64,000 nt of DNA, taken from the UHGV virus genome UHGV-1484817. One strand, 5' to 3'. The position numbers were made by a program, and so were the translations under genes. A model generated the notes under the pieces. The model searched no databases and was not told the origin of the DNA. It saw only the letters and a program-made list of their open reading frames with translations. Below are positions 1,409 to 31,078 of this stretch, piece after piece (the stretch's first letter is position 1; the number at the start of each line of letters is the position of its first letter). This stretch comes from a virus.

Positions 1409-1540
1409 GTGTCGCCTTTTGCATTATCCGGGGTCTCAATCCCGGCACCCGTTTTAATGAGGTGCCTGATAAGCATAAACCGAAAATGCCTCAAGGCGCA
1501 AGAGGTCAGGTTCAATGTAACATCGGTAGTTAAAAAACAC

Positions 1541-1557
1541 AATTTATTAGAGCAAAT
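1541..1557. promoter_or_regulatory. C1-type operator (Op51-like)
   Basis: AATTTATTAGAGCAAAT, near-perfect reverse complement of the P1 C1 operator consensus ATTGCTCTAATAAATTT; abuts the pacB stop. Confidence 0.6.
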
Positions 1558-1559
1558 AT

Positions 1560-3044
1560 TCATTCGTTAAGCCATGCCAGAGCTTCATCAACCTGCGCTT
1601 CGTCTTCGACGCTAAGCACTTCATCCTGGGGAACATAATCCGCCAGCATAGCGAAACAATATGTATCCCAATGGTCTGGTGAGTGCAGGTTGAGTTTTTT
1701 CTTCATATCCTCCTTACTCATCACCTTCCATTGACCTGCGGAGTTAATCCCTACAGGGATTTTCGACGCTTCCTCAATAGTTTCATTACCCTTATCCAGT
1801 CTCATACGACCAGATTTTACGGCCTCTGCGGCTTGAACGTTGGCATAAGCACGTTTATCAAAGTACAGGCTCTTATCTTCACGGCTATGCATCTTTTTAC
1901 CCCAGCGTATACGCTGTACGGTAATACCATAATACTCGTACATCAGATCCGCCGTTGCTTTACCCAGGCCATCGCCGTCTATCGCTATGGTGATATTTGG
2001 GAATCGCTCAGGATTACATTCTGCGAAAATTTTGGCGGCAAGCTGCGTTTCTGTAACGTCTGTGTATTCCAGCATTCGATAGTTGATTACACGGCGTTTA
2101 TTTCGCTGGCCGGACACCATCATGATATTGATAACGGACTTATCCCGTCCCGTACCACCAGCAACGTCCACACATGCAAGCCAGCCCCATCCTTTTGCAA
2201 TCTTGACTTTCCGCCGCGTTGCACGTTCAACCTCATCACGTCCAAGAAGGAAGCCATCCTGTGATTTAGGGAATAGGCCGCGTACCTTAATCATGTACAT
2301 AGGGTTATCACGCCCGCCGTACTCCGCCAGCTTCATTTTGATAAATGCTGGCGTTACCAACGGTGATTCCTCACTGTTAAGCGTGATCGCCGTATAAACG
2401 CCATCAGGGTTACCAGGACGCTTGGCCAGTTTATGGTGTGTATCGTAGAAATAGCCGCTTGGGCGTGTAGGCTGTGACAGCAATAAGATGCGGTTATCCT
2501 GTCCGGTAAGAGCACCGGTGATGATACCGAAAGCTCTATCACTGACACCGGAGGCTTCATCGATAATATACAGAAGATGATCTGCGTGTTCACCGGCGAG
2601 AGCTTCTTCACTTCCCAGACGAAAGCCCTTCGGTACTACAGTCCATACACCTTTACCAGTAATCTCATAGAAAGCGGTTTCTGTCAGAACAAAATAATCA
2701 GCAAGCCATGGGAAACGGCTGGTGGCAGTAGCCCAGTTTATCTTGATGTACTTGAATATACCGGTCATTACCTGCTGAATTTTGTTCGCAACGATAATGG
2801 CACGGGCACCTGGATACATGATTATGAACAACATGATCATGATAGAAGTCATGTCTGATTTCCCGGTACCGTGACCAGACGAAACAGATGTCTTGCTACC
2901 CTGTTCCTGCACAGACTCAATAATCAGATCCTGCTGCCAGGTAGGTGTTTTGCCGAACAAAACATCAGCGGCAGCAATCCAGTCATAACGATATAGCGCC
3001 ACCAGCTCGCGCCAACGTGGATCCGTTACGCAACTTCTGGCCAT
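1560..3044 (-). CDS. pacB: Terminase large subunit PacB
   Basis: 494-aa ORF translationally coupled to the upstream pacA-like gene; length and gene order pacA-pacB as in P1. Confidence 0.85.
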
Positions 3045-4237
3045 TAATCATCATCCCCGTATAGCTTGCGGGTAACTTCTTCGTCTTCCTCCTCGTCTTC
3101 GTCCAGGTCTTGTTCCAGCCATGGGTCGTTTGATACACCTTCAGTATCAACATCTCCATAACCGCCTGTATCAACGATATCGGCGATTTCTTCCCTACGC
3201 TGCTCAATCCACAATGCGGCATCGGCGCGGCGGTTGGCGGCCCGTTCTCGCGCAACTTTGTCCAGATCTTCAAGAGAAGGGCCACCGACGGCTGTTTGCC
3301 TTTCCTCATCATCGGTATTGGTCTTAGGAGCACGCAGATCGGCTTTGATTTGCTCCAGCATCAGGGGCGGCACTTTTCCGCCATGCGCCTCGATGAATTC
3401 AGCTGCTTCCAGCACTGACCAGTTATTTTCACGCTTTCGTTCGTATGCCAGCTTAACAATGCCAGCTTGCCCCATAGATAAAGCGTGCTTTTCCGCCTCC
3501 CGGCTTTCTTTTCGATAGTTATTCCGGATGCTGTAAATGGTGTTGATCAGGCTGCTTATCTGCGCGGAACAGCTGTTTAGCATGCTCGCGATACGATATT
3601 CAGGCGGAGTCCCTTCATCATCGTCTTTTTGCTGATCGCGCATTTCCTGCACCAGACGAATACACGTATCCCTGGCATTCTCCAGCATAAGGAGATGAGA
3701 AAGAGACTTTTCCAGAAGAGTGGTTTCCAGAACATCGGCCCCGGACCGACGCAACATAGCGCGCGCAGCCTTCCGCGCTTCAACGTTATCTATCAGGTAA
3801 TCGCCAGCTTCGAATTCAAAGCGTTCACCATCATCATCCAGGGTGTCGCGTTCCAGGCGATCACGTAAGGTCCGGTGGGCGCGGGTGATCACGTCATGAT
3901 CATCAGAACGATCATTTATGCGCTTATTTTGGCGCTTCGCATTCTCGACTGCGGCACTGACAACGGCATTAACCCTTTGTTTTTCCGCTATTTCAGCCGC
4001 AATGTGATCACCTGCATGTTGATCATTAGAGTGATCAATGATCATGCTTTTTAGTGGCTTCCTGACTGGCTTATTTGGCTTGCGGCTGTCCGCTGTCCTG
4101 GTGTCTTCTTTGAAGGCACGGAGATAACGACGTGCAGTATTAGGGTTAAGATTAAACTCGGCGGCATACTGTGCGATGGTGTAACCACCATCTCGCGCCA
4201 GGCGAGCAAAATTCTTCTTGTGATCGTCCCAGGTCAC
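3044..4237 (-). CDS. pacA: Terminase small subunit / pac-recognition protein PacA
   Basis: 397-aa ORF, acidic C-terminus; contains the TGATCA hexamer clusters typical of a P1 pac site within its coding sequence. Confidence 0.85.
3886..4044. other. pac packaging site (two clusters of TGATCA hexamers)
   Basis: TGATCA at 3886, 3897 and at 4005, 4020, 4032, 4039, with a CGATCA at 3909; two clusters about 100 bp apart, the architecture described for P1 pac (Dam-methylatable hexamers). Confidence 0.6.
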
Positions 4238-4322
4238 TTATGCTTCCTTTCGTAAAAACTCTTTTTGACGCGAGGGTAACGAAAGTCACATGTCAAAAGG
4301 CCCGGAACGGGCAAGCAATCAA

Positions 4323-4775
4323 TCAGATACGTGCGGATGTGGCATTACCGTAATGACGGTGCTGACGGGCCACCTTATTGAAAAGTTGACGCGCCATTAC
4401 CCAAGGCTGGTGCTCCCGGCGTTCCTTTTCGTCCTGCGTCATATAGAGTTCGTTCTGGAGTTTTTCATCAAACCGGCGCGGAGCGCGGCTACGGCGAAAG
4501 AATTCAGGATTCAGAGAGTGGATCTGAAATCTACGTGGGCGTGTACTGTCATCAATCAAAACAGACGAATACTTAGACACAGCGATAGCCTTTAAGCGCA
4601 GATAAACATCGCGCTTATCGACATCCAGATGCGGGTATTCCTTTTCAAGAATTGCTGCGAGTTCTTTCGCTGATAGAAGAGATTTAGTGCGGATCATGTA
4701 ATCCGCAATCTCGTACGATGTTATTCGTGAGTGATTTATTTCCATGAAGTGGCGTCCCTGCCAGTTAAGTAACAT
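4323..4775 (-). CDS. lpa: Late promoter activator (Lpa-like)
   Basis: 150-aa ORF directly upstream of pacA with a C1 operator in front, the position of lpa in P1. Confidence 0.65.
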   Translation of the reverse strand: MLLNWQGRHFMEINHSRITSYEIADYMIRTKSLLSAKELAAILEKEYPHLDVDKRDVYLRLKAIAVSKYSSVLIDDSTRPRRFQIHSLNPEFFRRSRAPRRFDEKLQNELYMTQDEKERREHQPWVMARQLFNKVARQHRHYGNATSARI

Positions 4776-4845
4776 CCTGTCACCTACTGATTAGCCCATG
4801 TCAACTAATCAACGTGGAATATAATACCCTCGATTAAAGAAATAG

Positions 4846-4862
4846 CAATACATTAGAGCAAT
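4846..4862. promoter_or_regulatory. C1-type operator (Op88-like, partial match)
   Basis: ...ACATTAGAGCAAT...; right half TTAGAGCAAT matches the operator consensus exactly, left half is degenerate; sits upstream of lpa. Confidence 0.45.
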
Positions 4863-4863
4863 T

Positions 4864-5907
4864 TTATCTAACGCTCGACGAGTGACTTGTGATAGCGCCG
4901 ACTCCAAGCGCGTAATCAAAGAACAATCGTTGATGCATCGCCAGCCTACCGTGCGTCTTCTCCCAATTATCGCGGTCACGCTCAATATCACGCTGGCATG
5001 ACTGGCACAGAGGAATTGCGTAAATGTCATGCGCGCATAATCGACTATGACGAACGATATAAGGCGTAATGTGAGCGCCAGCTCCCGCCGCTCCACACCC
5101 ACAGCATGGACGGGAAGCAACAAAGTCCATGTACTCAGGTAATTTTAGCGATTGCAGTTTTGGTATTTTGAAATGCGCCATGCCAGGGTCGGAGTCAACA
5201 TCCACAGGGCATACTTTTGCACGCATCGGCGCGGCGCGTTCTTCCATCATCTGAACATATGCTGTAGCGCGATCGTCATACGGGCGAATATCCGCCTCTT
5301 TCAGAGGTCCGCTATCCTGCGTTGCGGCTTTCATCTTATTTATTGATATACGGCAAACTTCTTCCGGCATCAGGTGCATCATGTTGCGCATGAAAGCCCA
5401 CCAGCACAGTTCCTGAATACTTAAATCATGGCCATCTGAAAGCCCCATTTCCTGACGGGCGACATCCAGTATCCAGTTAACGCGATTATTATGCAGCGTT
5501 TCTTTCAGCTCATTAAAACCACGCATCCGGTAATGGTTATCGTGATGCCAGCACAACAACACCGCGCTATTGTCTCGTTCTGCGTGGACAATATGGTTGT
5601 CACACCAGCTACGATCTGCGGCCTGGCATTGCCCCTCTTTCCTGCGCAACCACGCCACCAGCGCGTCAATTCCACCAATACGGCGAAACAGTTCATCGCT
5701 GTTAAAAAACGGCTGCAACGCCTCATTTGTTGCCATAGTTTGCTCGGAAACAACGAGGCCGTCGTCCATGTGCTCGATTAACTCACGCGGCACCGGCTCC
5801 ATAATAAATTTACGGCCAGCCTCCACCAGCTTTCTGACTTCCTGATCCACTTTGAATGTGGCGACGCCAAGCTCTTTTTGTACAAAGGGAGTAATTATGG
5901 CTTTCAC
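4864..5907 (-). CDS. Hypothetical protein (position of P1 pdcB), Cys-rich C-terminus
   Basis: 347-aa ORF between doc and lpa; C-terminal CxxC...CxxC cluster. Confidence 0.55.
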
Positions 5908-5934
5908 ATCACACCTTTAATCACTGATTGGGCT

Positions 5935-6135
5935 TTATCTGCTGCCCGGCATTCTCTGTTTAAGCACAACCATTTCCTGACGGCATAACACAGCAATAGC
6001 GGTCCTGACTCCAATTTGCTTACCAACCAGGTATTGCTTTACCTTGCGGCGGCTCACGCCATCAAGAAGCATCTTTAACGCTTCACGGGACAACTTGTTG
6101 TATTTACGTGCCATTAATCTACTCCGCAGAACCAT
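5935..6135 (-). CDS. Small basic hypothetical protein (position of P1 pdcA)
   Basis: 66-aa ORF just downstream of doc; short and basic, true start uncertain. Confidence 0.3.
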
Positions 6136-6499
6136 ACAATCTACGTAACGTGTCGGCGACAGAAGATACAGATATCTCGCCAGTCGCAGCGCCTACGGTA
6201 AGGTCTGCCAGTTCAGGTGAATCAAATACCTGCACCCCGTTACGGCGTAGAAATAGCAGCGCACTGTTTAGCGCGGTACGCTTATTGGCATCATTGAATA
6301 TATGCCCTCTCGCTGTAGCCACCAGGTAGGTGGCGGAGACTTCGAAAAGGTCGGTGATCTCTTCGTAGGCAACTCTGGCCTGAACTCTCCCGATAATGGC
6401 CTCTGCCCTACCCGGATCAGACATTCCCGGCAGGCCGCCGTAGCGGCTTATATTCGCATCATGAAGCGCAACAAGTTCTTCCGGTGATATATGTCTCAT
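6119..6499 (-). CDS. doc: Doc toxin (Fic-family kinase)
   Basis: 126-aa [25 protein letters not shown]...; recognisable as P1 Doc; start overlaps the phd stop. Confidence 0.9.
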
Positions 6500-6720
6500 T
6501 ATCGGTTAACCAGTTCCTTGTTGGTGGAGTCCAGGGTGTCAAACAGGGATGCAAATTCAGCATCCAGCGCCGCTTTTTTGTAGGCTTCGAAAGTAGCCTT
6601 GCTGACAATTACTGCTGGCTCACGGCCTCTGCGGGTGATTTCAACCTCTTCCCCGGCTTCAACATTGTTGAGCACTTCAGAAAGGTTGCCGCGCGCGGTA
6701 CGGAAGTTAATGGATTGCAT
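6499..6720 (-). CDS. phd: Phd antitoxin
   Basis: 73 aa from [32 protein letters not shown]...; recognisable as P1 Phd (the ORF track adds two codons upstream). Confidence 0.9.
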
Positions 6721-6792
6721 AAACACCTCGTGTACTCGTTATGTGTACACAATTATAAACTTCACAGGCATAAAGCACCAGCACTTTGCAGC

Positions 6793-7182
6793 TTAAATAA
6801 CCGGACAATCATCAAATTCCCCACTTCGGGCATCATTGATGACATGAGTGATCACACCAAAAACAGCATTACTGCCCGTGTATCCATCGTCATCTACTGG
6901 TAACGCCTCTTTCTTCCCGGTGCTTAAGTCCTCCAGGTGCTGGCGCGGATACTTCCTGTATCTCTTTATGCGATATTCACCCTCCATAGCGCACACAAGC
7001 AGAGAACCATCAACCGGAGTAAGCGAGGAATCAACCACCAGCAAAGCTCCCTGCAATATTCCCTCACGGTGATGGCTATCAGCTGCCCGCATGAAGTAGG
7101 TCGCTGAAGGATGTCTAATTATCTGCTGATCAAGAGAAATTCGGCTTTCAACATAATCCGCCGCAGGAGAAGGGAAGCCCAT
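6793..7182 (-). CDS. humD: UmuD-like S24 peptidase (HumD)
   Basis: 129-aa ORF with LexA/UmuD-type peptidase fold features; LexA box immediately upstream. Confidence 0.8.
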   Translation of the reverse strand: MGFPSPAADYVESRISLDQQIIRHPSATYFMRAADSHHREGILQGALLVVDSSLTPVDGSLLVCAMEGEYRIKRYRKYPRQHLEDLSTGKKEALPVDDDGYTGSNAVFGVITHVINDARSGEFDDCPVI

Positions 7183-7200
7183 AGCGTTTTACCTCAATGA

Positions 7201-7220
7201 TACTGTTTATTCATACAGTA
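7201..7220. promoter_or_regulatory. LexA (SOS) box
   Basis: TACTGTTTATTCATACAGTA = CTGT-N8-ACAG palindrome, 19 bp upstream of the humD start. Confidence 0.6.
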
Positions 7221-7305
7221 TACATTGAAAAGGCATAGTTTGTGAAAGCGGGGTTTGTAGGCGCGCCACGCTGGGGGCTAATCACATTTCTCCCCCATCT
7301 TGCCG

Positions 7306-7557
7306 TTATTTTTTTGGTGCATCCTCGTTCTGATACACCGGATCGCTCCCTTTTGGCAACTGGAGGCTTAACTGCCGGTAGTGCCGTAGCCGTTCCATGA
7401 AATAGGCGCGCAGGTTTTCCGGTTGCTCACGGGCCACCTGCTCTGCAATCACAGGTATATTCAGCCGTTCTTTGTAAGCAACGCCGCTGGCGGCAAGGTC
7501 TACGTTCACCTTGTCTCGCTCTTCCTGGCTTTTAGCTGCTATATTTCGATCTGACAC
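7306..7557 (-). CDS. hot: DNA polymerase III theta-subunit homologue (Hot)
   Basis: 83-aa ORF with [21 protein letters not shown]...REQPE motif characteristic of HolE/theta. Confidence 0.8.
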
Positions 7558-7589
7558 AAGAAACCTCCAGGAGTTAGTGGATCAGGCAC

Positions 7590-7940
7590 ATGCACAATAA
7601 CGTTCTCAATGTTAGCCGTTCAATTCAGACAATCAGAGACTGCACCAGTGTGGTGGCATCAATCCCATTGCGAAACAGCATAGACGAACTGCAAATTCGT
7701 GTATTGAATCCGAATCAGGCTAATAAGCAATTGCGCTTTATTTTGACGCTGAAAAGTGAAACAGAGGGGATAAAGCACAGCGTAAAAGTGTTTTCTGAGG
7801 CCATTCTGCTTAATGGGAAGCTCCGGCATCTGGTAAGGCCAGAACGTCAATATCCTGACGTCCTGGCGCGTGAAAAAGACCTTCTTTCTGAAGTTCAGGA
7901 TAGGGTGATCGATTTCGTCAAATGCTATCCCCTGCATTGA
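7590..7940 (+). CDS. Hypothetical protein
   Basis: 116-aa plus-strand ORF in the gap between minus-strand genes; no recognisable motif. Confidence 0.3.
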   Translation: MHNNVLNVSRSIQTIRDCTSVVASIPLRNSIDELQIRVLNPNQANKQLRFILTLKSETEGIKHSVKVFSEAILLNGKLRHLVRPERQYPDVLAREKDLLSEVQDRVIDFVKCYPLH

Positions 7941-8209
7941 GGGCAGGTGTTCCCTTCCGCAAAGTAGGGAAAATTGCTATCAAGTTCATCACACCATCTG
8001 CGATGGTCGTAGCACCAAAACGCCTCCCACGGTGCACGGAAATACTTCATCCACCAGGACACTCGATCAGGTATATCTGCTGGTGGCAGTTCTTCTGGCA
8101 ATAATTTGCCTGATAATTCCCTTTCCGCCCGCGACAGCATTTTTTTGAGGCTCGCGTTCTCTTTTTCAAGCTCATCTACGCGCACCTGTAATTCAGCTTT
8201 CGTTGGCAT
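7925..8209 (-). CDS. Hypothetical protein with C-terminal CxxC
   Basis: ORF 7925-8290; start moved to the internal Met (MPTKAELQ...) to limit overlap with the upstream gene; coiled-coil segment. Confidence 0.4.
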   Translation of the reverse strand: MPTKAELQVRVDELEKENASLKKMLSRAERELSGKLLPEELPPADIPDRVSWWMKYFRAPWEAFWCYDHRRWCDELDSNFPYFAEGNTCPQCRG

Positions 8210-9275
8210 GGTCCACCTCATGCTTTTCAGCCACCAGCGGCAATAAAGCCCTGGCCATCTTATGAACCAATAGTGCATCAATAATGCCAAGCGTATGCCC
8301 CGGCTTAATGTTTAATGCCGCCTCAAGGCGACACCTTTCCAGGCCACTTTTCTCGGCTTGTTTATGATGATCTGGTGTAATAACGTCGCCCAAAACACGG
8401 CTAATTCTTTCTCGTAATTGCTGGGTGCCAGCACACTTGATCGCTGTATCGTGGAGACGGTTAACCAGTTCGCGATAAACATGCGGCTTAATTCGGATAC
8501 GTTCACCGGTGACGCCCTTTCCTGGTGCTGGCACCGAACTATCCGGAATATCCGGATAGTTGCCAGCCAGTCTACGCAAAACAGCCTTAACAGCCTCAAT
8601 ACGGTCATCATCGCAACTTTCCAGCGTATCTATGCGATCGAGCATGATGATGGCGTTATCAATATCAGGATTGCCGGTCCACTCATTACCGCGATTGGAT
8701 TCGGCAGTCTGGTTGCCGCGTACTGGTTGATTCTCGGCTTTACCCTGTCTGTCGTTGCTGCATGAATGCCCTTCCAGCCAGACCAGTGCTTGTCGCATGA
8801 AATACGCAATATGCTTGCCGTGGTAATCGTCTTCATCGATGTGAAAAGCGATACTGCGGATATATTCAATTGCGTTTTCAATGGCCTCTAACGCTATCGG
8901 TGCTGGCGGAGTGGTATATAGTTTTCGACATTTGTTTATCCAACCGGCATGGTCAGGCGTGTCTGTAAAGCGCAAATCGTCTTCGTAGCACTCACGACTT
9001 CGTTCTTTCCATTCCGTCCACGGAACACCGCTATTCCAGGTGGGACGAGTGCAGGACTGATACAGAACAGGCTCTGCTTCCAGTGATGCCAGTGCAATCC
9101 GTGCCAGCTCACGCACAACTTCCGGCGGCGCGTAACGGTCATTCAGGTCATCCCACAGGCGTAGCATGTTATCGCTACCAGGGTGAACATCCTCGTTAGT
9201 TCCGGCCAGCGCACTAATAACCTCATCGGCTGCTTCAATAATTTTCTGTGCCTGTTCTCTGGTAATAGTGGTCAT
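8193..9275 (-). CDS. Hypothetical protein, MTTIT paralogue family (360 aa)
   Basis: N-terminus MTTITREQAQKI... and motifs ELARIALA.LE, YxxPPAP shared with the ORFs at 9708-10103 and 10311-10775. Confidence 0.6.
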   Translation of the reverse strand: MTTITREQAQKIIEAADEVISALAGTNEDVHPGSDNMLRLWDDLNDRYAPPEVVRELARIALASLEAEPVLYQSCTRPTWNSGVPWTEWKERSRECYEDDLRFTDTPDHAGWINKCRKLYTTPPAPIALEAIENAIEYIRSIAFHIDEDDYHGKHIAYFMRQALVWLEGHSCSNDRQGKAENQPVRGNQTAESNRGNEWTGNPDIDNAIIMLDRIDTLESCDDDRIEAVKAVLRRLAGNYPDIPDSSVPAPGKGVTGERIRIKPHVYRELVNRLHDTAIKCAGTQQLRERISRVLGDVITPDHHKQAEKSGLERCRLEAALNIKPGHTLGIIDALLVHKMARALLPLVAEKHEVDHANES

Positions 9276-9285
9276 TTGTTATGCC

Positions 9286-9483
9286 TCAATACACGAAATC
9301 TGTTTTAAATTCATGGTTACATTCTGGACAGCATGTTTCGTAACCTTTTATTTCTTCACATGCCTGTTTAGCTCCAGAAAACTCCCAGAAATCAGCATCA
9401 CAAAGCAGATCGAAATTGTGACCGCATTTTGGGCATTCGGTATCAAGTGACAGATTCCAGTAAGCAGTGGTGTTTTTATCCAT
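9286..9483 (-). CDS. Small zinc-ribbon protein
   Basis: CPKCGH ... CCPECNH motifs; start set at internal MDKNTTAYW. Confidence 0.45.
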   Translation of the reverse strand: MDKNTTAYWNLSLDTECPKCGHNFDLLCDADFWEFSGAKQACEEIKGYETCCPECNHEFKTDFVY

Positions 9484-9484
9484 A

Positions 9485-9706
9485 TCAGTCTCCTTTACCC
9501 GCTGCTTTCTCCTGCTCTTTAGCAAGCCGCTCCGCTTCTCTGAAATCCCAGTCAACTCGACGTGCTATATCAATTGCAGAACGCACGGTACGTTCAATTA
9601 GCGTATCCAGATTATCGATTGTCATTGCCATATCTGGATTGCGAGATAAAATCTCCGCCCTCTGAATCTGCCAGTTGTTGCAGGTTTCAAGTAATGAGTT
9701 AGCCAT
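9485..9706 (-). CDS. Small hypothetical protein
   Basis: ORF 9485-9748 trimmed to the MANSLLETC... start, adjacent to the next gene stop. Confidence 0.4.
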   Translation of the reverse strand: MANSLLETCNNWQIQRAEILSRNPDMAMTIDNLDTLIERTVRSAIDIARRVDWDFREAERLAKEQEKAAGKGD

Positions 9707-9707
9707 A

Positions 9708-10103
9708 TCACTTTCCTTTCCCATGAAGCATAGCCGCGCGGCAGGCATTCCAGCCTCTCACCTCTGCAATAGCGGCAACAGCATCAACCGCGTACATGCT
9801 AAGAGGATTAGGCATTGGTTTTTCTTCCGGTACTACTGGCGCTGGAGGGGCGGCGTAAATACCCTCTATCACTAAATGTTTGCGCTCAAAATCATCTGGC
9901 TCTCGATGATATACGTAACTCCAATCACCAAGGTTATCATTGCGCCTGCAACGGAAACCTATCGGCTCGACTTCCAGCGCTGCCAGAGCAATTCGTGCCA
10001 GTTCTTCCGCTTCTTCTGCTGGCAGTACAACGTTGCTACCAGGTCCGTATGTTTCGCGCCACTGCTTGATTGTCAGCAGTCGCTCTTTGGTTATAGTGGT
10101 CAT
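9708..10103 (-). CDS. Hypothetical protein, MTTIT paralogue family (131 aa)
   Basis: MTTITKERLLTI..., EEAEELARIALAALEVEP, YAAPPAPVVPEE; paralogue of 8193-9275. Confidence 0.55.
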   Translation of the reverse strand: MTTITKERLLTIKQWRETYGPGSNVVLPAEEAEELARIALAALEVEPIGFRCRRNDNLGDWSYVYHREPDDFERKHLVIEGIYAAPPAPVVPEEKPMPNPLSMYAVDAVAAIAEVRGWNACRAAMLHGKGK

Positions 10104-10309
10104 TTGTTAATCCTCAAAACTTTATGCCCGGGCGCAAAAGCACGCGTTTTGTCTTTGCTTATTCGCCAGCCATCCTTGCGCGCCTCTTTTGCACAGCCAG
10201 CCCATGACGTACCGATATACTCACCGAAGTCTGGCACTGGATATACACCTTCCGTACACTGGCGGCAGTCACAATAGAGATGCATTGTGTAACTTGCGGC
10301 AATAGCCAT
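10100..10309 (-). CDS. Small Cys-rich hypothetical protein
   Basis: 69-aa ORF tightly packed between neighbours (4-nt overlap). Confidence 0.4.
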   Translation of the reverse strand: MAIAASYTMHLYCDCRQCTEGVYPVPDFGEYIGTSWAGCAKEARKDGWRISKDKTRAFAPGHKVLRINK

Positions 10310-10310
10310 A

Positions 10311-10775
10311 TCACCCTCCTTTACCCTGAAGCATGGCGTCGCTCCGCTCTATACTATCCAGCGCGATTCGCAGTGCCTGAATTGTGGTAGTGCTATCGTT
10401 TGGGGCTATTCCATATCGCTCGAATACAGCTAAATGGTTGCGCATAATCTCAGGCGTAAGCTCTTTGTAAGCATAAGCAAGAGGCTCTGATGCATTATCC
10501 GGCACAACCGACGCAGGCGCGGCAGCATAAACAGGAATAACGTCCGCTTGCTCTTTATTGCTTTCATCCGTTAAAGCCCAGAATAATTTCCCGGCCGGAT
10601 GTTTGAAAATATAAGCAACTGGTTCTGCACTATCAGCTTCGCGCCGCTTCTGTAGCTCTGCTGCCATTGCTCTCACGACTTCAACTGGTGCCCTTGCAGC
10701 AAACTCTATGTTGGTGATCAGCTCATTAAGATATTGCTCGCTGGGATACTGTTTCTTATTGGTAATAGTGATCAT
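10311..10775 (-). CDS. Hypothetical protein, MTTIT paralogue family (154 aa)
   Basis: MITITNKK..., YAAAPASVVPD, C-terminal AMLQGKGG resembling AMLHGKGK of 9708-10103. Confidence 0.55.
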   Translation of the reverse strand: MITITNKKQYPSEQYLNELITNIEFAARAPVEVVRAMAAELQKRREADSAEPVAYIFKHPAGKLFWALTDESNKEQADVIPVYAAAPASVVPDNASEPLAYAYKELTPEIMRNHLAVFERYGIAPNDSTTTIQALRIALDSIERSDAMLQGKGG

Positions 10776-11287
10776 GCCGCGTTTCCTTCTTTCTTATTAA
10801 CAATTACACCGTCATATATTTCATTAAGGTGCCCTCTCAACTCCATGCGCCTTAATGCAGATAACATGTAATCGCATTCAACCTGCTTATTTCCAGTAAA
10901 TGGCTTATCGTCAGGATTACCCCAACAGCAATTACCCTTGGGCCACCCATGTACTTTCCGTACTCTTCCGTTAACAACGTGAAGTAATCCCCAGCCAGGT
11001 GGTAAATCCTCAATTGAAATAATTCCCGGCTCACTAATAAAGAATCGCCAGTCGCCCATTCCAAGAGACGGATTTTTACGGAAACGCTTTTTTCTATCTG
11101 CCAACAAGTCAGCACGAGAACACTTCGCCTCTATCAAGCATGATGCTGAACTTCTGAATCCCATAGCATCTGGCTGTTCTCCGGTGCTGGTTACAGCTAT
11201 AAAGCGGTCATGAAAGCAAACCTTGAACCCGTTGCGCTTAAGGAACTTGTACGCAATCTGACAGAGTTCGCGGTGTGTTAACGCCAT
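10772..11287 (-). CDS. Putative PD-(D/E)xK-type nuclease-like protein
   Basis: ORF trimmed to MALTHREL...; contains D...IEAK-like motif; assignment tentative. Confidence 0.45.
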   Translation of the reverse strand: MALTHRELCQIAYKFLKRNGFKVCFHDRFIAVTSTGEQPDAMGFRSSASCLIEAKCSRADLLADRKKRFRKNPSLGMGDWRFFISEPGIISIEDLPPGWGLLHVVNGRVRKVHGWPKGNCCWGNPDDKPFTGNKQVECDYMLSALRRMELRGHLNEIYDGVIVNKKEGNAA

Positions 11288-11655
11288 CTCACTCTCCTTT
11301 AGTGCGCAGATAACAGTGGTTTTTCCAGCGGTTTTGCGCCGCGCTGGGCTTTTTGCAAAAACCACAATCCATCATCCCGTAATATTTCATCAACCCCATC
11401 CGTCGGTTGCTGAGTCTCACCCACTGCCAGACGCCAGGAGCGTTTCTACGAACTAACAGAATCTTTGCTTTACGGTTTTTCATCGCTTTGCTCTCCTGCG
11501 TCTCTTTGCTGCTCGTCGTGCCGCTGCAATACCGGTATGGCGGCGCTTTGGTGCCGGGATGATGTTGTCAGCCATCAGGACATGTGGCTTTGCAATTAGC
11601 GCAGAAGCCCAAAAACGAGTCGGGTACGGTAACAAGCCGATACATGCCACACGCA

Positions 11656-12408
11656 TTACTCACCTCCTTTGATGCGAATGCCTGCGGCGCGGATTGCAGC
11701 GATGACTTCAGAAACTTTGTATGCCATTACCGTTTGGTAATCATCGTGAAAATCTGTTCGATGAAGCATGCTGCTACGTTCCGGGAGCGATATTTCCCGA
11801 GCATCCAGTTCCTTAACGCGTTCCTCCAGTTCGTAGACCCTGCATTGTTCTCTATCATCAATCAGATATAACCCAAGACATTCGCTTTCTACCCAACCGC
11901 CAAAATCATGATCGTAACGCTCACATGAAAACTCACCGTCACCGTCCTTTGTTGGAATGGTGTAACTATCTAATGGGCCACCATATGTCGGCACATTTCC
12001 CAATGTTGGATGCTCAATCCACATGAAAAATGCACGTCCGGTTATTGGGCAAATATCTGGCCGCCATTGGTTACGAACAGCCTTGGTTTCGGATAATTCT
12101 TCAGCGTGTTGTTTTACTTCCTCAAGCTCAACTCTCAGCTTCCCTACCGTTAGCGCAATATCCTCGTTCTCCTGATCGCGGCGTTTTATGTATTGCTGGT
12201 TTCTTTCCCGTTCATCCAGCAGCGCCAGCACGGTTTCTGGTCCGGTCAGAAATTTGAAGGCGTTGAGCGCATCAATATCCACACCGTAATCTTTAAGTTC
12301 CTGTTCACTTAACAAATCATCATCAGCTGGCAACATTAACAGGCGTTCCATTGCTGGAATTGCACGTTCCGCCGCCTCACGCAGTGCCTGGTAATTAATT
12401 TCGCTCAC
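11656..12408 (-). CDS. Ead/Ea22-like family protein (250 aa)
   Basis: N-terminal INYQALREAAERA motif typical of Ead/Ea22-like prophage proteins; paralogue of the next gene. Confidence 0.6.
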   Translation of the reverse strand: MSEINYQALREAAERAIPAMERLLMLPADDDLLSEQELKDYGVDIDALNAFKFLTGPETVLALLDERERNQQYIKRRDQENEDIALTVGKLRVELEEVKQHAEELSETKAVRNQWRPDICPITGRAFFMWIEHPTLGNVPTYGGPLDSYTIPTKDGDGEFSCERYDHDFGGWVESECLGLYLIDDREQCRVYELEERVKELDAREISLPERSSMLHRTDFHDDYQTVMAYKVSEVIAAIRAAGIRIKGGE

Positions 12409-13070
12409 TGGTTGCCTCCTTTGCGAAGCTGGGCAGCAAAGTCAACTAACCACTCAGTCATTTCAACCTTCCCTACCAGGTCTGAACCAGGGTGCATACA
12501 GCAATCACTCTGCGCCGCTTTGAAATCCTTATACTCATATTCTTGGGCCACCAGATTTTTTGCAGCTTCTATAGCAGCATCCACCCCCTGCGCCCGCACT
12601 TCAGACAGGAAAGCATCGGTAGCTGGAGTTTCGCTGTGGTGCAGGGCATCGTTGATAATCATTGCAGCAACTCCGGCCTGCCCTGCATCCGTGACCGACA
12701 CATGCTCAAGAGTTACGGCCATTGCGTGTTTCAGCCCAGCGTTCTCCGCCACCAGCGCCGCGAGATTAGTCTCAAGCTCTGCAATTCGACACATAGCATC
12801 AATATTTGTGTCCTCCAGGCGCTTAATTTCATCCAGTAGAGCCAGCACAACTTTGGGTGGGATAGCCGCGATATAACGGGCATTGGCACCAGCGTTTCTC
12901 TGTCCATCAATGCCAGGCCAGTCAATAAAGTATCCGCAATGCCTACCCTCAGACGTATGCGCAGGATAAGTGCCGTTTTGCCCCGGCAAAATATATGCTA
13001 CCCATTCATCTTGCGTTGCCTGTTCCGCCGCCTCGCGCAGTACCTGATAGTCAATTGTCATTCTCGCCAT
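12405..13070 (-). CDS. Ead/Ea22-like family protein (221 aa)
   Basis: N-terminal IDYQVLREAAEQA motif; 4-nt overlap with its paralogue. Confidence 0.6.
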   Translation of the reverse strand: MARMTIDYQVLREAAEQATQDEWVAYILPGQNGTYPAHTSEGRHCGYFIDWPGIDGQRNAGANARYIAAIPPKVVLALLDEIKRLEDTNIDAMCRIAELETNLAALVAENAGLKHAMAVTLEHVSVTDAGQAGVAAMIINDALHHSETPATDAFLSEVRAQGVDAAIEAAKNLVAQEYEYKDFKAAQSDCCMHPGSDLVGKVEMTEWLVDFAAQLRKGGNQ

Positions 13071-13702
13071 CCTTCACAGTTGTAATCACTACAGCCTTCA
13101 AAATCATATGGGCTGTACTGCCAGGTGATTTTTCCGCAATGCGGACAATTCCAACGCACCTTCCCGCTTCGCGACTTCTTTCTTCTGTTCTGCTCTTTCA
13201 ACCAGTCAGGCATGACCAAACCTGCGCCCTGAACCATTGTTCTGCGGTTAAAGTTATTGATATTGAACGTCCGGCGCTTTGCTGCATCAGCAATGGAAAA
13301 TGGCAACCAAACTATTCCTGGTTCGTTTTTGTTGGCGACGCTAAAGATGGTCGCTTTACTGAAGTCATCTGTTGGCAATCCACCGTGTTGAAGCCAGTAA
13401 ACATCGTTGCCGTTCCAGCTACCTTTTTTGTAGGCCACATACGCAGTGCAATCTGACTCAATCAGGCTTTCTGTAGGGATGTACTGGCAATCAACGTGCC
13501 ACACAGCCATTGCATCCACACTATCGGCACAAACAGGCTGATCGATATCTCGCCCACAACTCCAGGCTTTTTGGGCTTCTTCCAGCGTGTAAACATGAGC
13601 GCGATCGATATCAGAACTGTAACCATTGCCGTTATGGCAATGGAATGAGGCGTTATTACCCACAGTTTCACGCAAGCACATCATGTAAAAGCGGTTATTC
13701 AC
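13058..13702 (-). CDS. Cys-rich hypothetical protein
   Basis: 214-aa ORF with many Cys/His and a C-terminal CPHCG ... CEGW cluster. Confidence 0.5.
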   Translation of the reverse strand: MNNRFYMMCLRETVGNNASFHCHNGNGYSSDIDRAHVYTLEEAQKAWSCGRDIDQPVCADSVDAMAVWHVDCQYIPTESLIESDCTAYVAYKKGSWNGNDVYWLQHGGLPTDDFSKATIFSVANKNEPGIVWLPFSIADAAKRRTFNINNFNRRTMVQGAGLVMPDWLKEQNRRKKSRSGKVRWNCPHCGKITWQYSPYDFEGCSDYNCEGWRE

Positions 13703-13979
13703 TGGTTGCCTCCGCTTCCCACGTTTTCAGACTTTCACCACAGAACGGGCAAAATGAAACTCGAATAGGCGATTTAGAAAATTCACCAGACCGCAGCATG
13801 ATCAGGTCTTGTGAATGAATTAATTCATGGTTATAGATTTTGTATTTCAGCAGACCTTTTCGCGTCGTGTATTCAGCGTCATGCTCCAGGGATTGTGCCA
13901 ACGCCGCGCACGGTTCTATCTTGTTGCCATTAATTTGGCATTTTGACTCACTCACTGGTTGCCCCCTGAATACGCTCAA
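13695..13979 (-). CDS. Small zinc-ribbon-like hypothetical protein
   Basis: 94-aa ORF with C-terminal CPFCG motif. Confidence 0.4.
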   Translation of the reverse strand: MSVFRGQPVSESKCQINGNKIEPCAALAQSLEHDAEYTTRKGLLKYKIYNHELIHSQDLIMLRSGEFSKSPIRVSFCPFCGESLKTWEAEATSE

Positions 13980-14688
13980 ACTCGATTACCCACACCCAGG
14001 GATTAGCGTTCCAGCTTTCTTCACCATAGATGGATTCCCACAGGCGCTGGAACGCAACCTTGGCCATTGCGAAATCTCCCTTGGGAGTTAGGAATGTTCC
14101 CGGGTGATCAGGAAGCAAACTTCCAGCAGGCTGAACGCCCTCATCCCTTGCATCGCATTCGCTGATATCGTTCAACCGCTCAACGCGCACGTTGGTAATT
14201 TCCAACAGAATGCGTGATGCCCATCGCGGCATGTGAATTGATGGACGCCACCCACCATCAAACTTTTCATTCACAGTGTGAGGTTTCCAGTCGGCATCAT
14301 CGGGTATCGACCATAAACCGTAATCACCAGGCTTTTGCTCACAACTGGCCCGATAAATCCTTGCTGCGTTCTTCTCATCGCCACGACAAAGGTTGTCGTT
14401 CCAGTCCACACTGCAACCATCTTCATTGCCTAATATCGCCCATGTTTCACGAACCCAAATTCGATCGCCGACGATACCAAAGGGGCAATTGAAAACACTG
14501 CTTACACCATCAGCCCCGTACCACTGAAAACCTGCACCAATTTTTCTAACCATCACTGGTGCTTCTGGACCAACTTCCGCAGGCTGATTTTTCATTATCC
14601 GCCGCGTCTGCGTTTTCCTTCCTTCGAGGATGGCCCGGACCATCTCATCGTTGAAAATCATGCCGCGCTCTTTCACTTCGCCTTTCAT
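13948..14688 (-). CDS. ASCH-domain-like prophage protein
   Basis: MIFNDEMVRAILEGRKTQTRR motif common to a widespread prophage protein family; start may be the internal MIFND. Confidence 0.6.
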   Translation of the reverse strand: MKGEVKERGMIFNDEMVRAILEGRKTQTRRIMKNQPAEVGPEAPVMVRKIGAGFQWYGADGVSSVFNCPFGIVGDRIWVRETWAILGNEDGCSVDWNDNLCRGDEKNAARIYRASCEQKPGDYGLWSIPDDADWKPHTVNEKFDGGWRPSIHMPRWASRILLEITNVRVERLNDISECDARDEGVQPAGSLLPDHPGTFLTPKGDFAMAKVAFQRLWESIYGEESWNANPWVWVIEFERIQGATSE

Positions 14689-14866
14689 GCATCCCCCTTA
14701 CCCATGCGCGACGATGCCGCCAAAAGTGATAGAGAACAGCCAGAAATAGATCGCGGCCATAATGATTTTGAATGCCGTGTTCATATTTTCAGCTCCTGTG
14801 ATTGATTGGATACATGCCGCGCCTTGCGGCATGTTTTTATTTTCACTTTCTCTGTTTTAAAAATCA

Positions 14867-14882
14867 AGATTTATTAGAGCAA
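14867..14882. promoter_or_regulatory. C1-type operator
   Basis: GATTTATTAGAGCAAT, reverse-orientation match to the operator consensus, upstream of the minus-strand block starting at 14688. Confidence 0.55.
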
Positions 14883-15389
14883 TTATTGTTGATGAAGAAG
14901 CGCATTTTCATATTCCCTGACCATTAACGTAAGTACGCCGTGACTCCTGAAAACACGCGCCACTTCAATCTTATCTTCCAGCGCGAACGCAATTTTACTT
15001 AGACCAATTTTCTTCAGGAGATCAATCTTTGCAGGGCCGTCATTTCTGTCATCGGTGGCAGGACGCATAGATAGCAAAGGCTCAGCCCCATTTGTTACGT
15101 GCTTACGCAACCAAGCTCGTGTTTTATCCCTGGCTATCTCACAGCGCCCGGTTACAAACCAGAGCGTGTAAATGCTGGACAACTGGCGCACCATATCAAT
15201 AACTGGAGTGATGGGAGCATCAGTGTCACAGGCAAGGTTAAACTCGTTCCAGTGCTCTGTTAATGCACCTTTGCCAGGTGGTGGAAGTAAATGCAGCCTG
15301 TCTTCCGTTGCCTCTGATATCGTCCCATCAATATCTACTATGACGATGTACGGACGTTCCTGGTGTGCGTGTTTATTGAAAATACTCAA
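14883..15389 (-). CDS. HAD-superfamily phosphatase-like protein
   Basis: 168-aa ORF with IVDIDGTI (DxDGT) motif near the N-terminus. Confidence 0.6.
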   Translation of the reverse strand: MSIFNKHAHQERPYIVIVDIDGTISEATEDRLHLLPPPGKGALTEHWNEFNLACDTDAPITPVIDMVRQLSSIYTLWFVTGRCEIARDKTRAWLRKHVTNGAEPLLSMRPATDDRNDGPAKIDLLKKIGLSKIAFALEDKIEVARVFRSHGVLTLMVREYENALLHQQ

Positions 15390-15461
15390 ATGCCCTCCTC
15401 ATTGGACGAAAAAAATGCTGGTGGGCGCACTCCACCAGCATTAAAAGTGACACTGTAACTA

Positions 15462-16724
15462 TCAGCGAACGTAAATAGTGCCGCCGTTCTCTTTTTCCCA
15501 TGCATCGCTACGTGCATAGCAAACATCGAGAAGTCTTCTTGCCGCAGTTTCCTCTAAACCCAATTCGACAACCAACTGCTCATGACGGCGGGTAACCACA
15601 TCAAACAGGGTATGCAGCCCTTTAGTTGCCAGATCATCAATGAATTCCGGTTCGAACGGCAGCTCTGCCTCTGCCAACATAACCTCTTGCGCCCACTCAA
15701 CTCGACGGACCAGTTCCGGGCGGCGGCTTTCCATCTCTTTACAGATCAATTCATGGAAGAACTCTACCCAACCTTCCGGCTGGAACTCGCGGAAAATGGC
15801 CAACGGCTGGAAGTTTGGCATCAACCATTCGTTGATCCGGATATCAATGGCATAGCCCATGTCGCAGCAGAACTGATAAGCAAAGTCCAGCTTAGAAACG
15901 ATATAAGGACGCTCGTTATTGAACTCTTTAGGCGATGAGATCCCATAAGCCAGGAGGCGCGGGAAGAAGGAGATTTGCCCTAACGTCGGATGAAGTTTTC
16001 TTGCAGGGAAACGGCGCTCAGTAATGCCATACATTTCCTTCTTGAGCGTCGCAAATTTGGCATTCTCATTAACCAGCGCGGTAACCTCTGCTTTTTTATT
16101 AGCAAATGCCACGCGCGCTTCGCTTGCATCTTTAATAGTTTTTTTGAGCTGTTGGTTAAGGTCGGCGACCTGCTTACGCAGTTCCTGTCGCTCGCTTTTA
16201 GCTTTGTTATAGCGTTTCTCAAGGTTAAAAGGATCAAGTTTCATGATCTCTTTATATTGAGATTTTAGCGTTGAAATCTGTGAGTTCCGCAGTTCAACCA
16301 TCGCGGTCATTTCATTGAGCTTTGTTTCCAGCTCAATGCTTATACGTTCGGCATTATCAGCACGCTGGTTGGCGTCATGCGTCGCATCGTCGATCGCGTC
16401 CTGTTGCTGGCGTTTCAAATGTTCAATTTGCAGCTGAAGCTCTTCAATTTCTTTACCCTTCAGACCGAGATCCAACTGCATATTTTCAGCTGCATCTACC
16501 AGGGAGTTATGGCTATCAGCTTCTGCGTTATAAACATCAATAAGCTGTGCGTGAAGCATCTCCGCTGACTGAACCGCATTATCAAAAAAACGCGCTGTGA
16601 GGTCATCACAAATAACGCGGCGTTGCGCGGCCCGGATGTTCTGGATAATGGCCGGGATACCGGCATTCAGGACGTCAGGGATAGATACATTTTCGATTGA
16701 TTGGTTTTGTGCTGAAGTGCTCAT
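15462..16724 (-). CDS. Coiled-coil hypothetical protein (420 aa)
   Basis: Long heptad-rich central region (residues about 90-220), globular C-terminus; no recognisable catalytic motif. Confidence 0.55.
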   Translation of the reverse strand: MSTSAQNQSIENVSIPDVLNAGIPAIIQNIRAAQRRVICDDLTARFFDNAVQSAEMLHAQLIDVYNAEADSHNSLVDAAENMQLDLGLKGKEIEELQLQIEHLKRQQQDAIDDATHDANQRADNAERISIELETKLNEMTAMVELRNSQISTLKSQYKEIMKLDPFNLEKRYNKAKSERQELRKQVADLNQQLKKTIKDASEARVAFANKKAEVTALVNENAKFATLKKEMYGITERRFPARKLHPTLGQISFFPRLLAYGISSPKEFNNERPYIVSKLDFAYQFCCDMGYAIDIRINEWLMPNFQPLAIFREFQPEGWVEFFHELICKEMESRRPELVRRVEWAQEVMLAEAELPFEPEFIDDLATKGLHTLFDVVTRRHEQLVVELGLEETAARRLLDVCYARSDAWEKENGGTIYVR

Positions 16725-16725
16725 T

Positions 16726-16944
16726 TCAAAGTTCCGTATTAGCTTGTGCTTCGGTCATTTTTCCTAAGTATGAAGGAGGAAGGACTACGCAATTTGTATC
16801 CAGTCCCTCACCTATGGCAGCCTGTAAAATTCTGGCTAAGGTGAGTCTCTTGTTGCGATACCTGGTGATGACATGCCTGATACCGCCGGTCGGCGTAACA
16901 AAGGCGATCAGCCAGTAGTGATATTTCCGTCGGAATGGCCACAT
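16726..16944 (-). CDS. Small basic hypothetical protein downstream of a double C1 operator
   Basis: ORF 16726-16995 trimmed to MWPFRRKYHY... because the longer form would contain the operator at 16958-16974. Confidence 0.4.
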   Translation of the reverse strand: MWPFRRKYHYWLIAFVTPTGGIRHVITRYRNKRLTLARILQAAIGEGLDTNCVVLPPSYLGKMTEAQANTEL

Positions 16945-16957
16945 AGTGCACCTTGTA

Positions 16958-16974
16958 GATTGCTCTAATAAAAA
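16958..16974. promoter_or_regulatory. C1-type operator (forward orientation)
   Basis: ATTGCTCTAATAAAAAA, 14/17 match to consensus. Confidence 0.5.
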
Positions 16975-17010
16975 AACGTGATGAGTGTACATCACGTTTT
17001 AAAAATATGG

Positions 17011-17027
17011 AATTATTAGAGCAATAT
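17011..17027. promoter_or_regulatory. C1-type operator (reverse orientation)
   Basis: AATTATTAGAGCAATAT; forms an inverted pair with the site at 16958-16974, about 53 bp apart. Confidence 0.5.
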
Positions 17028-17728
17028 TATTCTGATTCTTGCTCAAAAAATGAGCTGATAAGGGGAAGCCAATCCTCTGACACTTCGCGAGGTCGCGGTT
17101 TGCCGTGGAAAAAGATTATTCGGCAGTCTTTTGGTAATGCCCCATTCCCCCTGGAGTAACGCGCGCTCGCATATTTTGAACCAGGTTCCACAACATCGGC
17201 CTTGTAACTTACAAACCATCCTGGATACAGATCCTGAAATGCTGGTGTATCATCGCCCATAACCTTTCGTAAGAACCCCTGGTCACCCCAGCACTCAGTA
17301 GTGACACAACGAGAAATCCAACCTTCCGGATCTTGCCAGAATGAACTCCAGATATGCGCTTTAACACTATTTGGTATCCACAGGGCACCGCTGCCACGAT
17401 ATTGTGGATGGTAAAAATCCCTAAGCATGGTGAAGCTGGTTGGTGGATGCTCTAGGATTGGGCGTATATCACCGGCAATAACCGTGTCCAAATCCAGATA
17501 GAACAGATCATCGGTTATATCCGGTCGGAACAACTCTATTTTCGCCCACCAGCCACGGCACTTTTGCCACTGGTTGATCAATGGGACAACTTTGACGCCA
17601 GGTACATGTAAACGCTTCAGGTCTGTCAGGCAAATAATTTCATAGCCTTTTGGCAGTTGATTAACCAGCCACTGCACATCGGAAGCGTTATAGTCACCAC
17701 CAGAGCGAAAAACTAAAGCAATCTTCAT
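17027..17728 (-). CDS. Putative nucleotide-sugar glycosyltransferase-like protein
   Basis: 233-aa ORF with a DxD-like motif (YLDLDTVI); assignment tentative. Confidence 0.45.
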
Positions 17729-18417
17729 GCTGCACCATCACCTTTCACTTTCATCAATGTCAGGTTTCCGCAAAATACGGCACCAGTGTCGATATACTGC
17801 TGATTCCAGAATGTCTTCGGGCTTTTCACCGGAGTGTGACCAAAGATAAAACGATCTGCGCCCGAAATTTCGCCACCAATATCATCCATCGAATCACTGA
17901 TACGCTCGCGCGCCCAGACAACGTTGAAAAGCGGCACCTCCTTACCGAATTGGTATTCATTATCCGGATAGTCGGCATGGGCTATAACGATAGTTTCTTG
18001 CCCGGTGTTCAACTCAATGATATAGGGCAGACGCTTTACCAGCTCCACCAGCGCCCAGGCTAATATTTCCTGATCAGTGTCCAGCATGAAGAACCATTGT
18101 CCGCCATTCATTAGCCAGTTATTCACGTTGCCATCTGGACTTAACGCATCAATCATCAGCCGCTCATGGTTCCCCATCACTGCCCTGAACCAGGGCATCT
18201 GCAATAGTTCAAGACATTCGACATTTTCAGTACCGCGATCGATAAGGTCGCCGACCGATATCAGTAAATCCTGCGCCGGGTCAAAATCCACACGATGGAG
18301 TTCGGACATCACTCTGGTGTAGCAACCATGCAGATCACCAACAACCCAGACATTCCTGTATTTGGTACCGTCGATACGGTGATAAATTGTGGGTGCCATC
18401 ATGTATTCTTCAGCCAT
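17725..18417 (-). CDS. ppp: Ser/Thr protein phosphatase (lambda-phosphatase-like metallophosphoesterase)
   Basis: GDLHG and GNHE metallophosphatase motifs; 230 aa. Confidence 0.75.
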
Positions 18418-19025
18418 TCTTTAAGAGTCATCTGCGGAATACCTCCCATTTTCCCGCATGAAACAACGTCAATCCGTTCACGCGCAGACTGGAATAACAA
18501 AGGCAGGTGACTTAGATTTTTTGGCGTGCCGCCGGAGTGAACGCGTGGTTCTTGTGTAGCGTCAACGCCCACCAGGGCGACATGTTTGAATCCGATATGG
18601 AAAGCCAGGTTCAGAGCGCCATATGCACTATTGCCGCTGGCAATTTCATTCTCATCTTCGCAAAGTCCGAAATGTGCGGACCAGCGCCACGCCCACCACT
18701 CGGGAGAATTCGTATTTTTTGGCTCCATGCCACGTTCAGCCACACGACGGAAGCACAGAACGCCGTCTCTGACTTCACGTTCTTTAACATCGGGTAGTGC
18801 CATGCAATAACAAACACCACGGCGACGGCGGCCACGACCAACGCGCCGCATATTGTCTGGCGATGGATCAAGTGTGAAAAAATAAGAAGCGCGGTTCAGC
18901 CAGTCGATGGCCCCATTGACCGCTATAATCGGCACTCCGCGCGGCGCAACAAAGTTTGCGGCGCTTGGGCCACTGCCGACGATAATAACGCGATCACTGC
19001 CTCTAAATTTATTCTTGGGAAACAT
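18399..19025 (-). CDS. MptE/DUF115-like Rossmann-fold protein
   Basis: IVGSGPS...IIAVN...VGVD motifs; paralogue of the upstream gene. Confidence 0.5.
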
Positions 19026-31050: not shown

Positions 31051-31078
31051 ATTACACTAATAAATTTATTAGAGCAAT
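31051..31078. promoter_or_regulatory. Overlapping bipartite C1 operator around a perfect palindrome
   Basis: ATTACACTAATAAATTTATTAGAGCAAT: 15/17 forward match overlapping a 17/17 reverse match, centred on CTAATAAATTTATTAG; overlaps the dmt stop codon and precedes the tRNA leader. Confidence 0.65.

Follow-up and report, generated by a model that had tools for sequence, protein, structure and literature searches.

An inverted pair of predicted C1 operators, already annotated in phage P1, in front of pmgR and pmgS of a P1-like plasmid prophage

The stretch of viral DNA analysed here (64,000 nucleotides, referred to below as the window) is, by its sequence, a phage P1-like plasmid prophage genome. 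Positions 14800-18500 are 98.4% identical to phage P1 (AF234172, NC_005856) and P7, and are matched most closely by P1-like genomes such as MH422554, with 99.2% identity over 100% coverage. On the minus strand of this segment lie pmgQ (17027-17728), the last gene of an upstream unit pmgN-pmgO-pmgP-ppp-pmgQ, followed by pmgR (16726-16944), pmgS (15462-16724) and the phosphatase gene pap (14883-15389). Two sites in opposite orientation separate pmgQ from pmgR and match the operator consensus of the phage repressor C1. OpmgRa (formerly Op86a; ATTGCTCTAATAATTCC, 17009-17025, minus strand) begins 1 nt past the pmgQ stop codon and is identical to the corresponding site in AF234172, and OpmgRb (formerly Op86b; ATTGCTCTAATAAAAAA, 16959-16975, plus strand), inverted relative to OpmgRa, sits 14 nt upstream of the pmgR ATG. 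A third C1 operator, OpmgT (formerly Op88; ATTGCTCTAATAAATCT, 14867-14883, minus strand), recognised by consensus match and P1 annotation, overlaps the pap stop codon. Because OpmgT begins the next C1-controlled unit, it bounds the pmgR-pmgS-pap unit; an OpmgT/Op88-like site is also found directly 3′ of the HAD phosphatase gene in two diverged lineages, JK004 and L125, whose PmgS proteins share 69% and 52% identity, respectively, with that of the window.

Left of about position 14800, the sequence diverges from reference P1 and is instead similar to RCS47 and JL22, in a region listed as variable among P1-like phage-plasmids (PMC9603915). P1-type phages cover only 59-71% of window positions 1-14800, left of Op88, parts of which match lambdoid and Stx phages; this stretch corresponds to the known hypervariable region of P1-like phage-plasmids, from pmgT to humD. 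The window starts within pacB, directly beyond which c1 is found in the P1 gene order, and this position of its edge accounts for the lack of any match to P1 C1 in a tblastn search of the 64,000 nt. The repressor gene probably lies just beyond the window edge. Several further elements of the genome were noted. Two copies of C4 antisense RNA plus isrK-like RNA (Rfam RF01695 and RF01394; 1255-1465 and 51440-51650), each adjoining a C1-operator match (1540-1556 and 51720-51736), suggest two immI-type antirepressor control modules, one of them near the pacB end, where RCS47 annotates an 'ant' gene in the matching region. A sok antitoxin RNA on the minus strand at 47808-47982 (RF01794, 97 bits) implies that this P1-like element carries an addiction module of the hok/sok type. 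Downstream of Op88, a strong GC-rich hairpin of 9-10 bp in the leader (14812-14834) overlaps the start of a 44-aa ORF (14698-14832); its T-tract lies on the plus strand only, and no gene is transcribed towards that tract there.

The operator pair was recovered by a scan of the whole window with the asymmetric 17-bp C1 consensus, ATTGCTCTAATAAATTT, allowing up to three mismatches. The consensus and 22 dispersed C1 operators in P1 have been described previously (PMC8546580). Twelve matches were obtained against 0.29 expected, a count reached in none of 100 shuffles, and the exact 12-mer core TTGCTCTAATAA occurs seven times against an expectation of 0.00. The two inverted matches reported in an earlier note on this DNA are, therefore, real and far above chance. 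That note placed them at 16958-16974 and 17011-17027, about 53 bp apart; the sites themselves stand, with positions corrected by 1-2 bp and a spacing of 50 bp centre to centre or 33 bp edge to edge. Each site carries three mismatches to the 17-mer consensus, all confined to positions 14-17, leaving a perfect 13-nt core, and together the two form a perfect 13-nt inverted repeat. The A-run of OpmgRb is the complement of the T-tract that follows a hairpin lying between the operators. Elsewhere in the window, at 31051-31078, two operator matches of opposite orientation overlap at an 11-bp offset, one of them a perfect 17-mer, in the layout of a P1 'bivalent' operator such as Oc1ab.

Assignment of the pair to C1, also proposed in the earlier note, is corroborated by the P1 record AF234172, which annotates C1 protein_bind features at the same position and in base-for-base alignment with OpmgRa and OpmgRb of the window. 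The record describes OpmgRa as 'former Op86a', with control of pmgR and pmgS, and OpmgRb as 'former Op86b'. Since exactly these sites are annotated in the P1 GenBank entry, the finding is an already described feature: the inverted operator pair and its target genes are those known as Op86a/Op86b from the 2004 P1 annotation, and in the window the two sites are predicted C1 operators on the strength of this match. The older name Op86 hints at earlier mapping; a full-text literature search on Op86, OpmgR and Op88 returned unrelated matches only.

The window differs from P1 at this locus by one extra T in the T-tract. The A/T-run at the junction of OpmgRb and the hairpin (16970-16976) has seven residues here versus six in reference P1, and the operator centres lie 50 bp apart versus 49 in P1. 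This variant is rare. A pattern scan of IMG/VR recovered at least 120 contigs with the same operator-hairpin-operator block. Of 123 sequences, 119 have a core-to-core span of 64 nt, and the other four, the window included, one of 65 nt. OpmgRa is conserved in JK004 and L125, both of which also retain the OpmgRb core, ATTAGAGCAA. Three diverged lineages (JK004, an L070-type group and L125) retain the arrangement of operator, hairpin and inverted operator, with differing stem sequences.

The 33-bp inter-operator stretch is occupied by a hairpin with a perfect 11-bp stem, AAAACGTGATG-TACACT-CATCACGTTTT, followed by a T-tract (16966-17000, minus strand; stem-loop at 16973-17000), identified by terminator scan and by folding (-13.4 kcal/mol, z = -5.2). 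Its 7-bp core stem is 100% paired in four lineages, with compensatory changes in three of the seven pairs; an Rfam scan of 14800-17100 found no RNA family. The hairpin starts 26 nt beyond the pmgQ stop codon and thus resembles a terminator of the upstream pmgN-pmgQ unit. The U-tract 3′ of it is absent in L125, such that termination may not be its sole role. A second hairpin, AATGCTGGTGG-AGTGCGC-CCACCAGCATT followed by TTTTT (15405-15442, minus strand; hairpin at 15414-15442), lies in the 72 bp that separate pmgS from pap and has a folding energy of -18.1 kcal/mol. Both structures were classed by the terminator scan as predicted Rho-independent terminators, having a stable stem-loop and a U-tract, and termination would be expected at each.

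In the P1 record, PpmgR is a predicted sigma-70 promoter, TTGCTC-17-TAAAAC, with a score of 7/12. Its -35 hexamer, TTGCTC (17024-17019), falls inside OpmgRa, and its -10 hexamer, TAAAAC, maps by alignment to 16996-17001 on the minus strand. A promoter scan of the window did not call this annotated promoter. The hairpin loop, TACACT (16984-16989), is itself a conserved -10-like hexamer with the form TAnnnT in all lineages, and the scan selected promoters with the loop as -10 in both JK004 (TTTACT-16-TATCAT, 9/12) and L125 (TTGATT-16-TATTAT, 9/12). These two calls share one homologous position, with the -35 just past the OpmgRa core; the homologous P1 hexamers, TCCATA-16-TACACT, score 7/12. The comparative data mildly favour, therefore, a PpmgR -10 in the hairpin loop over the annotated TAAAAC. 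Given the annotated -10, OpmgRa would extend from about -36 to -20 and OpmgRb from about +17 to +33, with the start inside the hairpin; given the loop -10, the corresponding spans would be about -48 to -32 and +5 to +21, with the start at the hairpin end. In either model, PpmgR transcripts would lack the full stem-loop, and RNA polymerase would be bracketed by the two C1 sites.

Other promoters were considered and set aside. A late promoter for pmgR was rejected because a minus-strand scan upstream of the gene, modelled on P1 LPhot, LPpmgL and LP26, was negative for Lpa-type late promoter boxes. A plus-strand promoter with the TTGCTC of OpmgRb as its -35 was likewise discarded: inspection by eye found no -10-like hexamer 16-18 bp downstream, nothing coding lies downstream except pmgQ antisense, and the promoter scan of 14700-17900 yielded no plus-strand promoter.

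Expression data bearing on the unit come from RNA-seq of P1vir infection compared with a no-phage control in wild-type cells (Table S1 of PMC8201110). At 10 min, the logFC values, possibly unnormalised for gene length, are 6.95 for ppp and 7.05 for pmgQ, and rise to 9.02 for pmgR, 9.99 for pmgS, 8.45 for pap and 9.72 for pmgT (PMC8201110). Known C1-controlled early genes (ant1, kilA, ref and dmt) reach 8.3-10.0 at the same time point, and late genes reach 2.8-5.5, with 23, sit, pacA and pmgC at 3.1-5.4 (PMC8201110). The values for pmgR, pmgS and pap lie near those of the early genes and above those of the late structural genes, placing the unit in the early class. The earlier note had offered two possibilities for such an operon, of which early induction agrees with these data and expression in lysogeny contradicts control by the lysogenic repressor. 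The step from pmgQ to pmgR argues for a promoter and transcript boundary exactly at the operators, on the basis of P1vir infection rather than a comparison of lysogen with induced lysogen. The locus thereby bears on the small question of why the head-completion gene pmgR runs early under direct C1 control and not from a late promoter.

The first gene of the unit, recognised as an ORF, by P1 annotation and as phrog_3177, has an AAGGTG Shine-Dalgarno sequence and a stop codon 1 nt before the pmgS ATG. Its product is basic (pI 10.1), as the earlier note stated, and is 72 rather than 73 aa long. The AF2 model of PmgR (pLDDT 89) has a beta-beta-alpha-beta-alpha topology, for which a structure search returned no significant fold match. 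Deletion mutants of pmgR form no infectious virions but do produce tails and incomplete heads, and complementation in trans restores plaque formation (PMC9024508). The gene is essential for head completion, and the suggestion of an accessory operon of unknown function does not fit it. A PmgR homologue with 32% identity (E = 2e-7) is encoded directly upstream of a PmgS homologue on the Leclercia plasmid pE1_003, and this adjacency in so distant a plasmid marks the pair as a conserved module; the two genes occupy positions 4572-6293 of that phage-plasmid locus (L124). Distant PmgR homologues, of about 97 aa, possess an extra C-terminal hydrophobic segment, CCLIPFLVLGLVVWL, that is absent from P1 PmgR. 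The 21 'extremely conserved' genes of 77 P1-like phage-plasmids include both pmgR and pmgS (PMC9603915).

The pmgS gene, an ORF also annotated in P1, encodes a protein of 420 aa and is, like pap, non-essential by deletion and CRISPRi (PMC10695390). The AF2 model of PmgS (pLDDT 70) shows two long helices, spanning residues 41-160 and 168-232, plus a small beta domain, and its C-terminus is helical. The N-terminal region is a coiled coil, in keeping with the earlier description of a 420-aa coiled-coil protein. The homology and structure searches that had been recommended for this protein were run and point to its C-terminus. PmgS alone has no match in Pfam, and single-sequence searches of Pfam, NCBIfam and PDB gave coiled-coil noise only. 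A profile of the family, which comprises at least 121 clusters at 50% identity, matches the RAD51 N-terminal domain (E = 6.8e-8) and the RNA polymerase alpha-CTD (E = 5.6e-7). Among 52 family members compared with Pfam, 15 match HHH_5 and 12 match RNA_pol_A_CTD, and PLSDB, in which PmgS is present in 734 records, labels distant homologues 'RNA polymerase alpha CTD domain-containing'. Foldseek with the whole model aligned only the C-terminal ~60 residues, with weak E-values; the sole fold match of the C-terminus is the RAD51C N-terminal domain, at a TM score of 0.78 but with E = 0.04. Profile and model together nominate the C-terminus as a candidate (HhH)2-like domain. The P1 annotation of PmgS, 'putative morphogenetic function', does not mention an (HhH)2 domain.

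The third gene, pap, starts with TTG and encodes a 168-aa PNKP-type HAD phosphatase, identified by Pfam and P1 annotation. The HAD-type phosphatase that the earlier note placed after a short gap is confirmed by a match to HAD_PNKP (PF25109; 45.3 bits against a gathering score of 27.6) and by a DIDGT motif at residues 19-23. Several database records call pap '3'-phosphatase, 5'-polynucleotide kinase'. Pap has no kinase domain, and PHROG polynucleotide-kinase profiles match in its phosphatase part only; the kinase label is unsupported, as the protein consists of a HAD phosphatase domain only.

Taken together, the locus is very probably the Op86a/Op86b (OpmgRa/OpmgRb) pair repressing PpmgR in a P1-like plasmid prophage. 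Direct support comes from the sites, their identity with annotated P1 operators, the conserved architecture and the early expression of the genes. In the lysogen, a C1 monomer would sit on each of the two asymmetric 17-bp sites, on either side of the core of a weak sigma-70 promoter. OpmgRa would cover the -35 region, and OpmgRb, 14 nt before the pmgR start codon, would cover the start or the early transcribed region; both could exclude or trap RNA polymerase and so keep pmgR and pmgS silent. The exact start of transcription and the share of each operator in this repression we infer from the sequence. The co-repressor Lxc/Bof may aid C1 binding. Upon inactivation of C1 by Coi or Ant, the unit would be transcribed early, with pap most likely co-transcribed via read-through of a leaky terminator. 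The hairpin and T-tract in the 33-bp inter-operator stretch would end the upstream pmgN-pmgQ transcript. Transcripts from PpmgR would escape this hairpin, because the -10 and the start lie inside or after it and the whole hairpin would never be present in their RNA.

How the two operators act can be read in other ways. The earlier note proposed that their spacing allows DNA looping, and a loop or a cooperative C1-C1 contact between the bound sites would suit both their inverted orientation and a near-constant span (64 nt in 119 of the 123 sequences). For the Op99 operators of c1, which are widely spaced, looping by C1 has been reported, and this lends the idea a precedent. The Op86 sites, by contrast, are 33 bp apart, far below the spacers of documented repressor loops, and their fixed spacing is explained equally well by the promoter core and hairpin packed between them. 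Moreover, the +1 variant (50 versus 49 bp) of the window and three other sequences means that both 64-nt and 65-nt spans occur, which suggests that no strict helical phasing applies. Looping is quite improbable on these grounds, and repression would need no more than the occlusion of RNA polymerase from both sides. The overlap of OpmgRb with the T-tract immediately downstream of the hairpin, together with the weakness of PpmgR by sequence, could point to operators that mainly form a roadblock to polymerases reading through from pmgN-pmgQ, or insulate against them, instead of occluding a promoter. Op83, a C1 operator belonging to the upstream operon, would keep that operon off in a lysogen anyway, and the jump in 10-min RNA at pmgR requires a promoter here; this role is accordingly improbable as the principal one. 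That the sites are chance matches or decayed, functionless relics might be argued from the three mismatches that each has to the 17-mer consensus. These fall entirely within the last four, variable positions and leave the 13-nt core perfect in both, zero such matches are expected by chance, and the sites are conserved down to 52% PmgS identity and are annotated operators in P1, by which this explanation is effectively refuted.

The extent of the unit downstream bears on the simple three-gene operon of the earlier note. Control of pmgR and pmgS by one repressor-regulated promoter is very probable; membership of pap is uncertain, given a conserved terminator-like hairpin in front of it, yet no other promoter to transcribe it. 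The hairpin past pmgS could end the unit, leaving pap outside operator control with an unrecognised promoter of its own. Consistent with such an end, the structure at 15405-15442 is strong and has a T-tract, its stem is retained in 25 of 25 sequence variants of the loci compared, and in JK004 a hairpin of other sequence, also with a T-tract, takes the same place between pmgS and pap. The P1 annotation lists pmgR and pmgS only as controlled, and the raw 10-min logFC falls from 9.99 for pmgS to 8.45 for pap. Against separation, pap is expressed early, and its level, once corrected simply for gene length, is about that of pmgS. Neither the P1 annotation nor the scan places a promoter or operator in the 25 nt that separate the hairpin from the start of pap, or within the 3′ end of pmgS. 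A TTTAAT just before the hairpin was rejected as a pap promoter: a usable -35 is lacking, JK004 does not conserve the hexamer, and the scan did not call it. In L125, the interval between pmgS and the HAD gene encodes an additional protein of 101 aa, and the unit extends to the Op88-like site with no canonical terminator in this interval. An independent pap is thus possible but rather unlikely. With the second terminator-like hairpin in its path, pap most likely belongs to the same C1-controlled unit by way of read-through, perhaps at an attenuated level.

A broader, joint reading of the locus is tentative and, as a whole, unlikely. In it, the operator-hairpin-operator block would be a compact dual-purpose switch: a single stretch of 28 bp would hold both the upstream terminator and the -10 and start of PpmgR, with the loop serving as the -10 in place of the annotated TAAAAC, and two C1 monomers would strengthen termination as well as occlude the promoter. 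The genes under its control would form an early-expressed pmgR-pmgS module, conserved beyond P1, that functions in packaging or head completion without being part of the virion; PmgS, as an (HhH)2 coiled-coil protein that presumably binds DNA, would act there with the small essential PmgR. Irrespective of this possibility, the region occurs in hundreds of sequenced P1-like plasmids, and the operator pair, the repressor and the target genes are already annotated, so that the locus has little importance alone. The accompanying observations could refine the P1 annotation, namely the probable loop -10, the two conserved delimiting hairpins, the phosphatase-only Pap, the candidate (HhH)2 domain of PmgS and the conserved pmgR-pmgS pair.

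Among known systems, the closest is the OpmgRa/OpmgRb pair with PpmgR in P1 itself (AF234172/NC_005856). This is the same locus, with identical operators, orientation and hairpin and the same flanking order of pmgQ, then pmgR, pmgS and pap, then Op88; the centres are 49 bp apart in AF234172 versus 50 in the window, owing to the extra T in the T-tract. The P1 operators Oc1a-e (formerly Op99a-e) share the repressor and the 17-bp asymmetric consensus and also place several sites at one promoter region. Among them is a bivalent pair whose sites overlap, and the set extends over ~570 bp, which is compatible with looping, whereas the Op86 pair consists of two monovalent sites 33 bp apart around a single promoter core. 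Bivalent P1 operators, exemplified by Oc1ab and by 31051-31078 of the window, likewise contain two inverted C1 sites, but these overlap at an 11-bp offset, in contrast to the separated Op86 sites with a hairpin and promoter between them. Outside P1, gal OE/OI and lac O1/O3 provide examples of two repressor sites that flank a promoter core, as the Op86 pair does. Those systems rely on dimeric or tetrameric repressors, spacers of ~90-115 bp and demonstrated looping; the C1 sites of the Op86 pair are asymmetric, and the spacer between them is 33 bp only.
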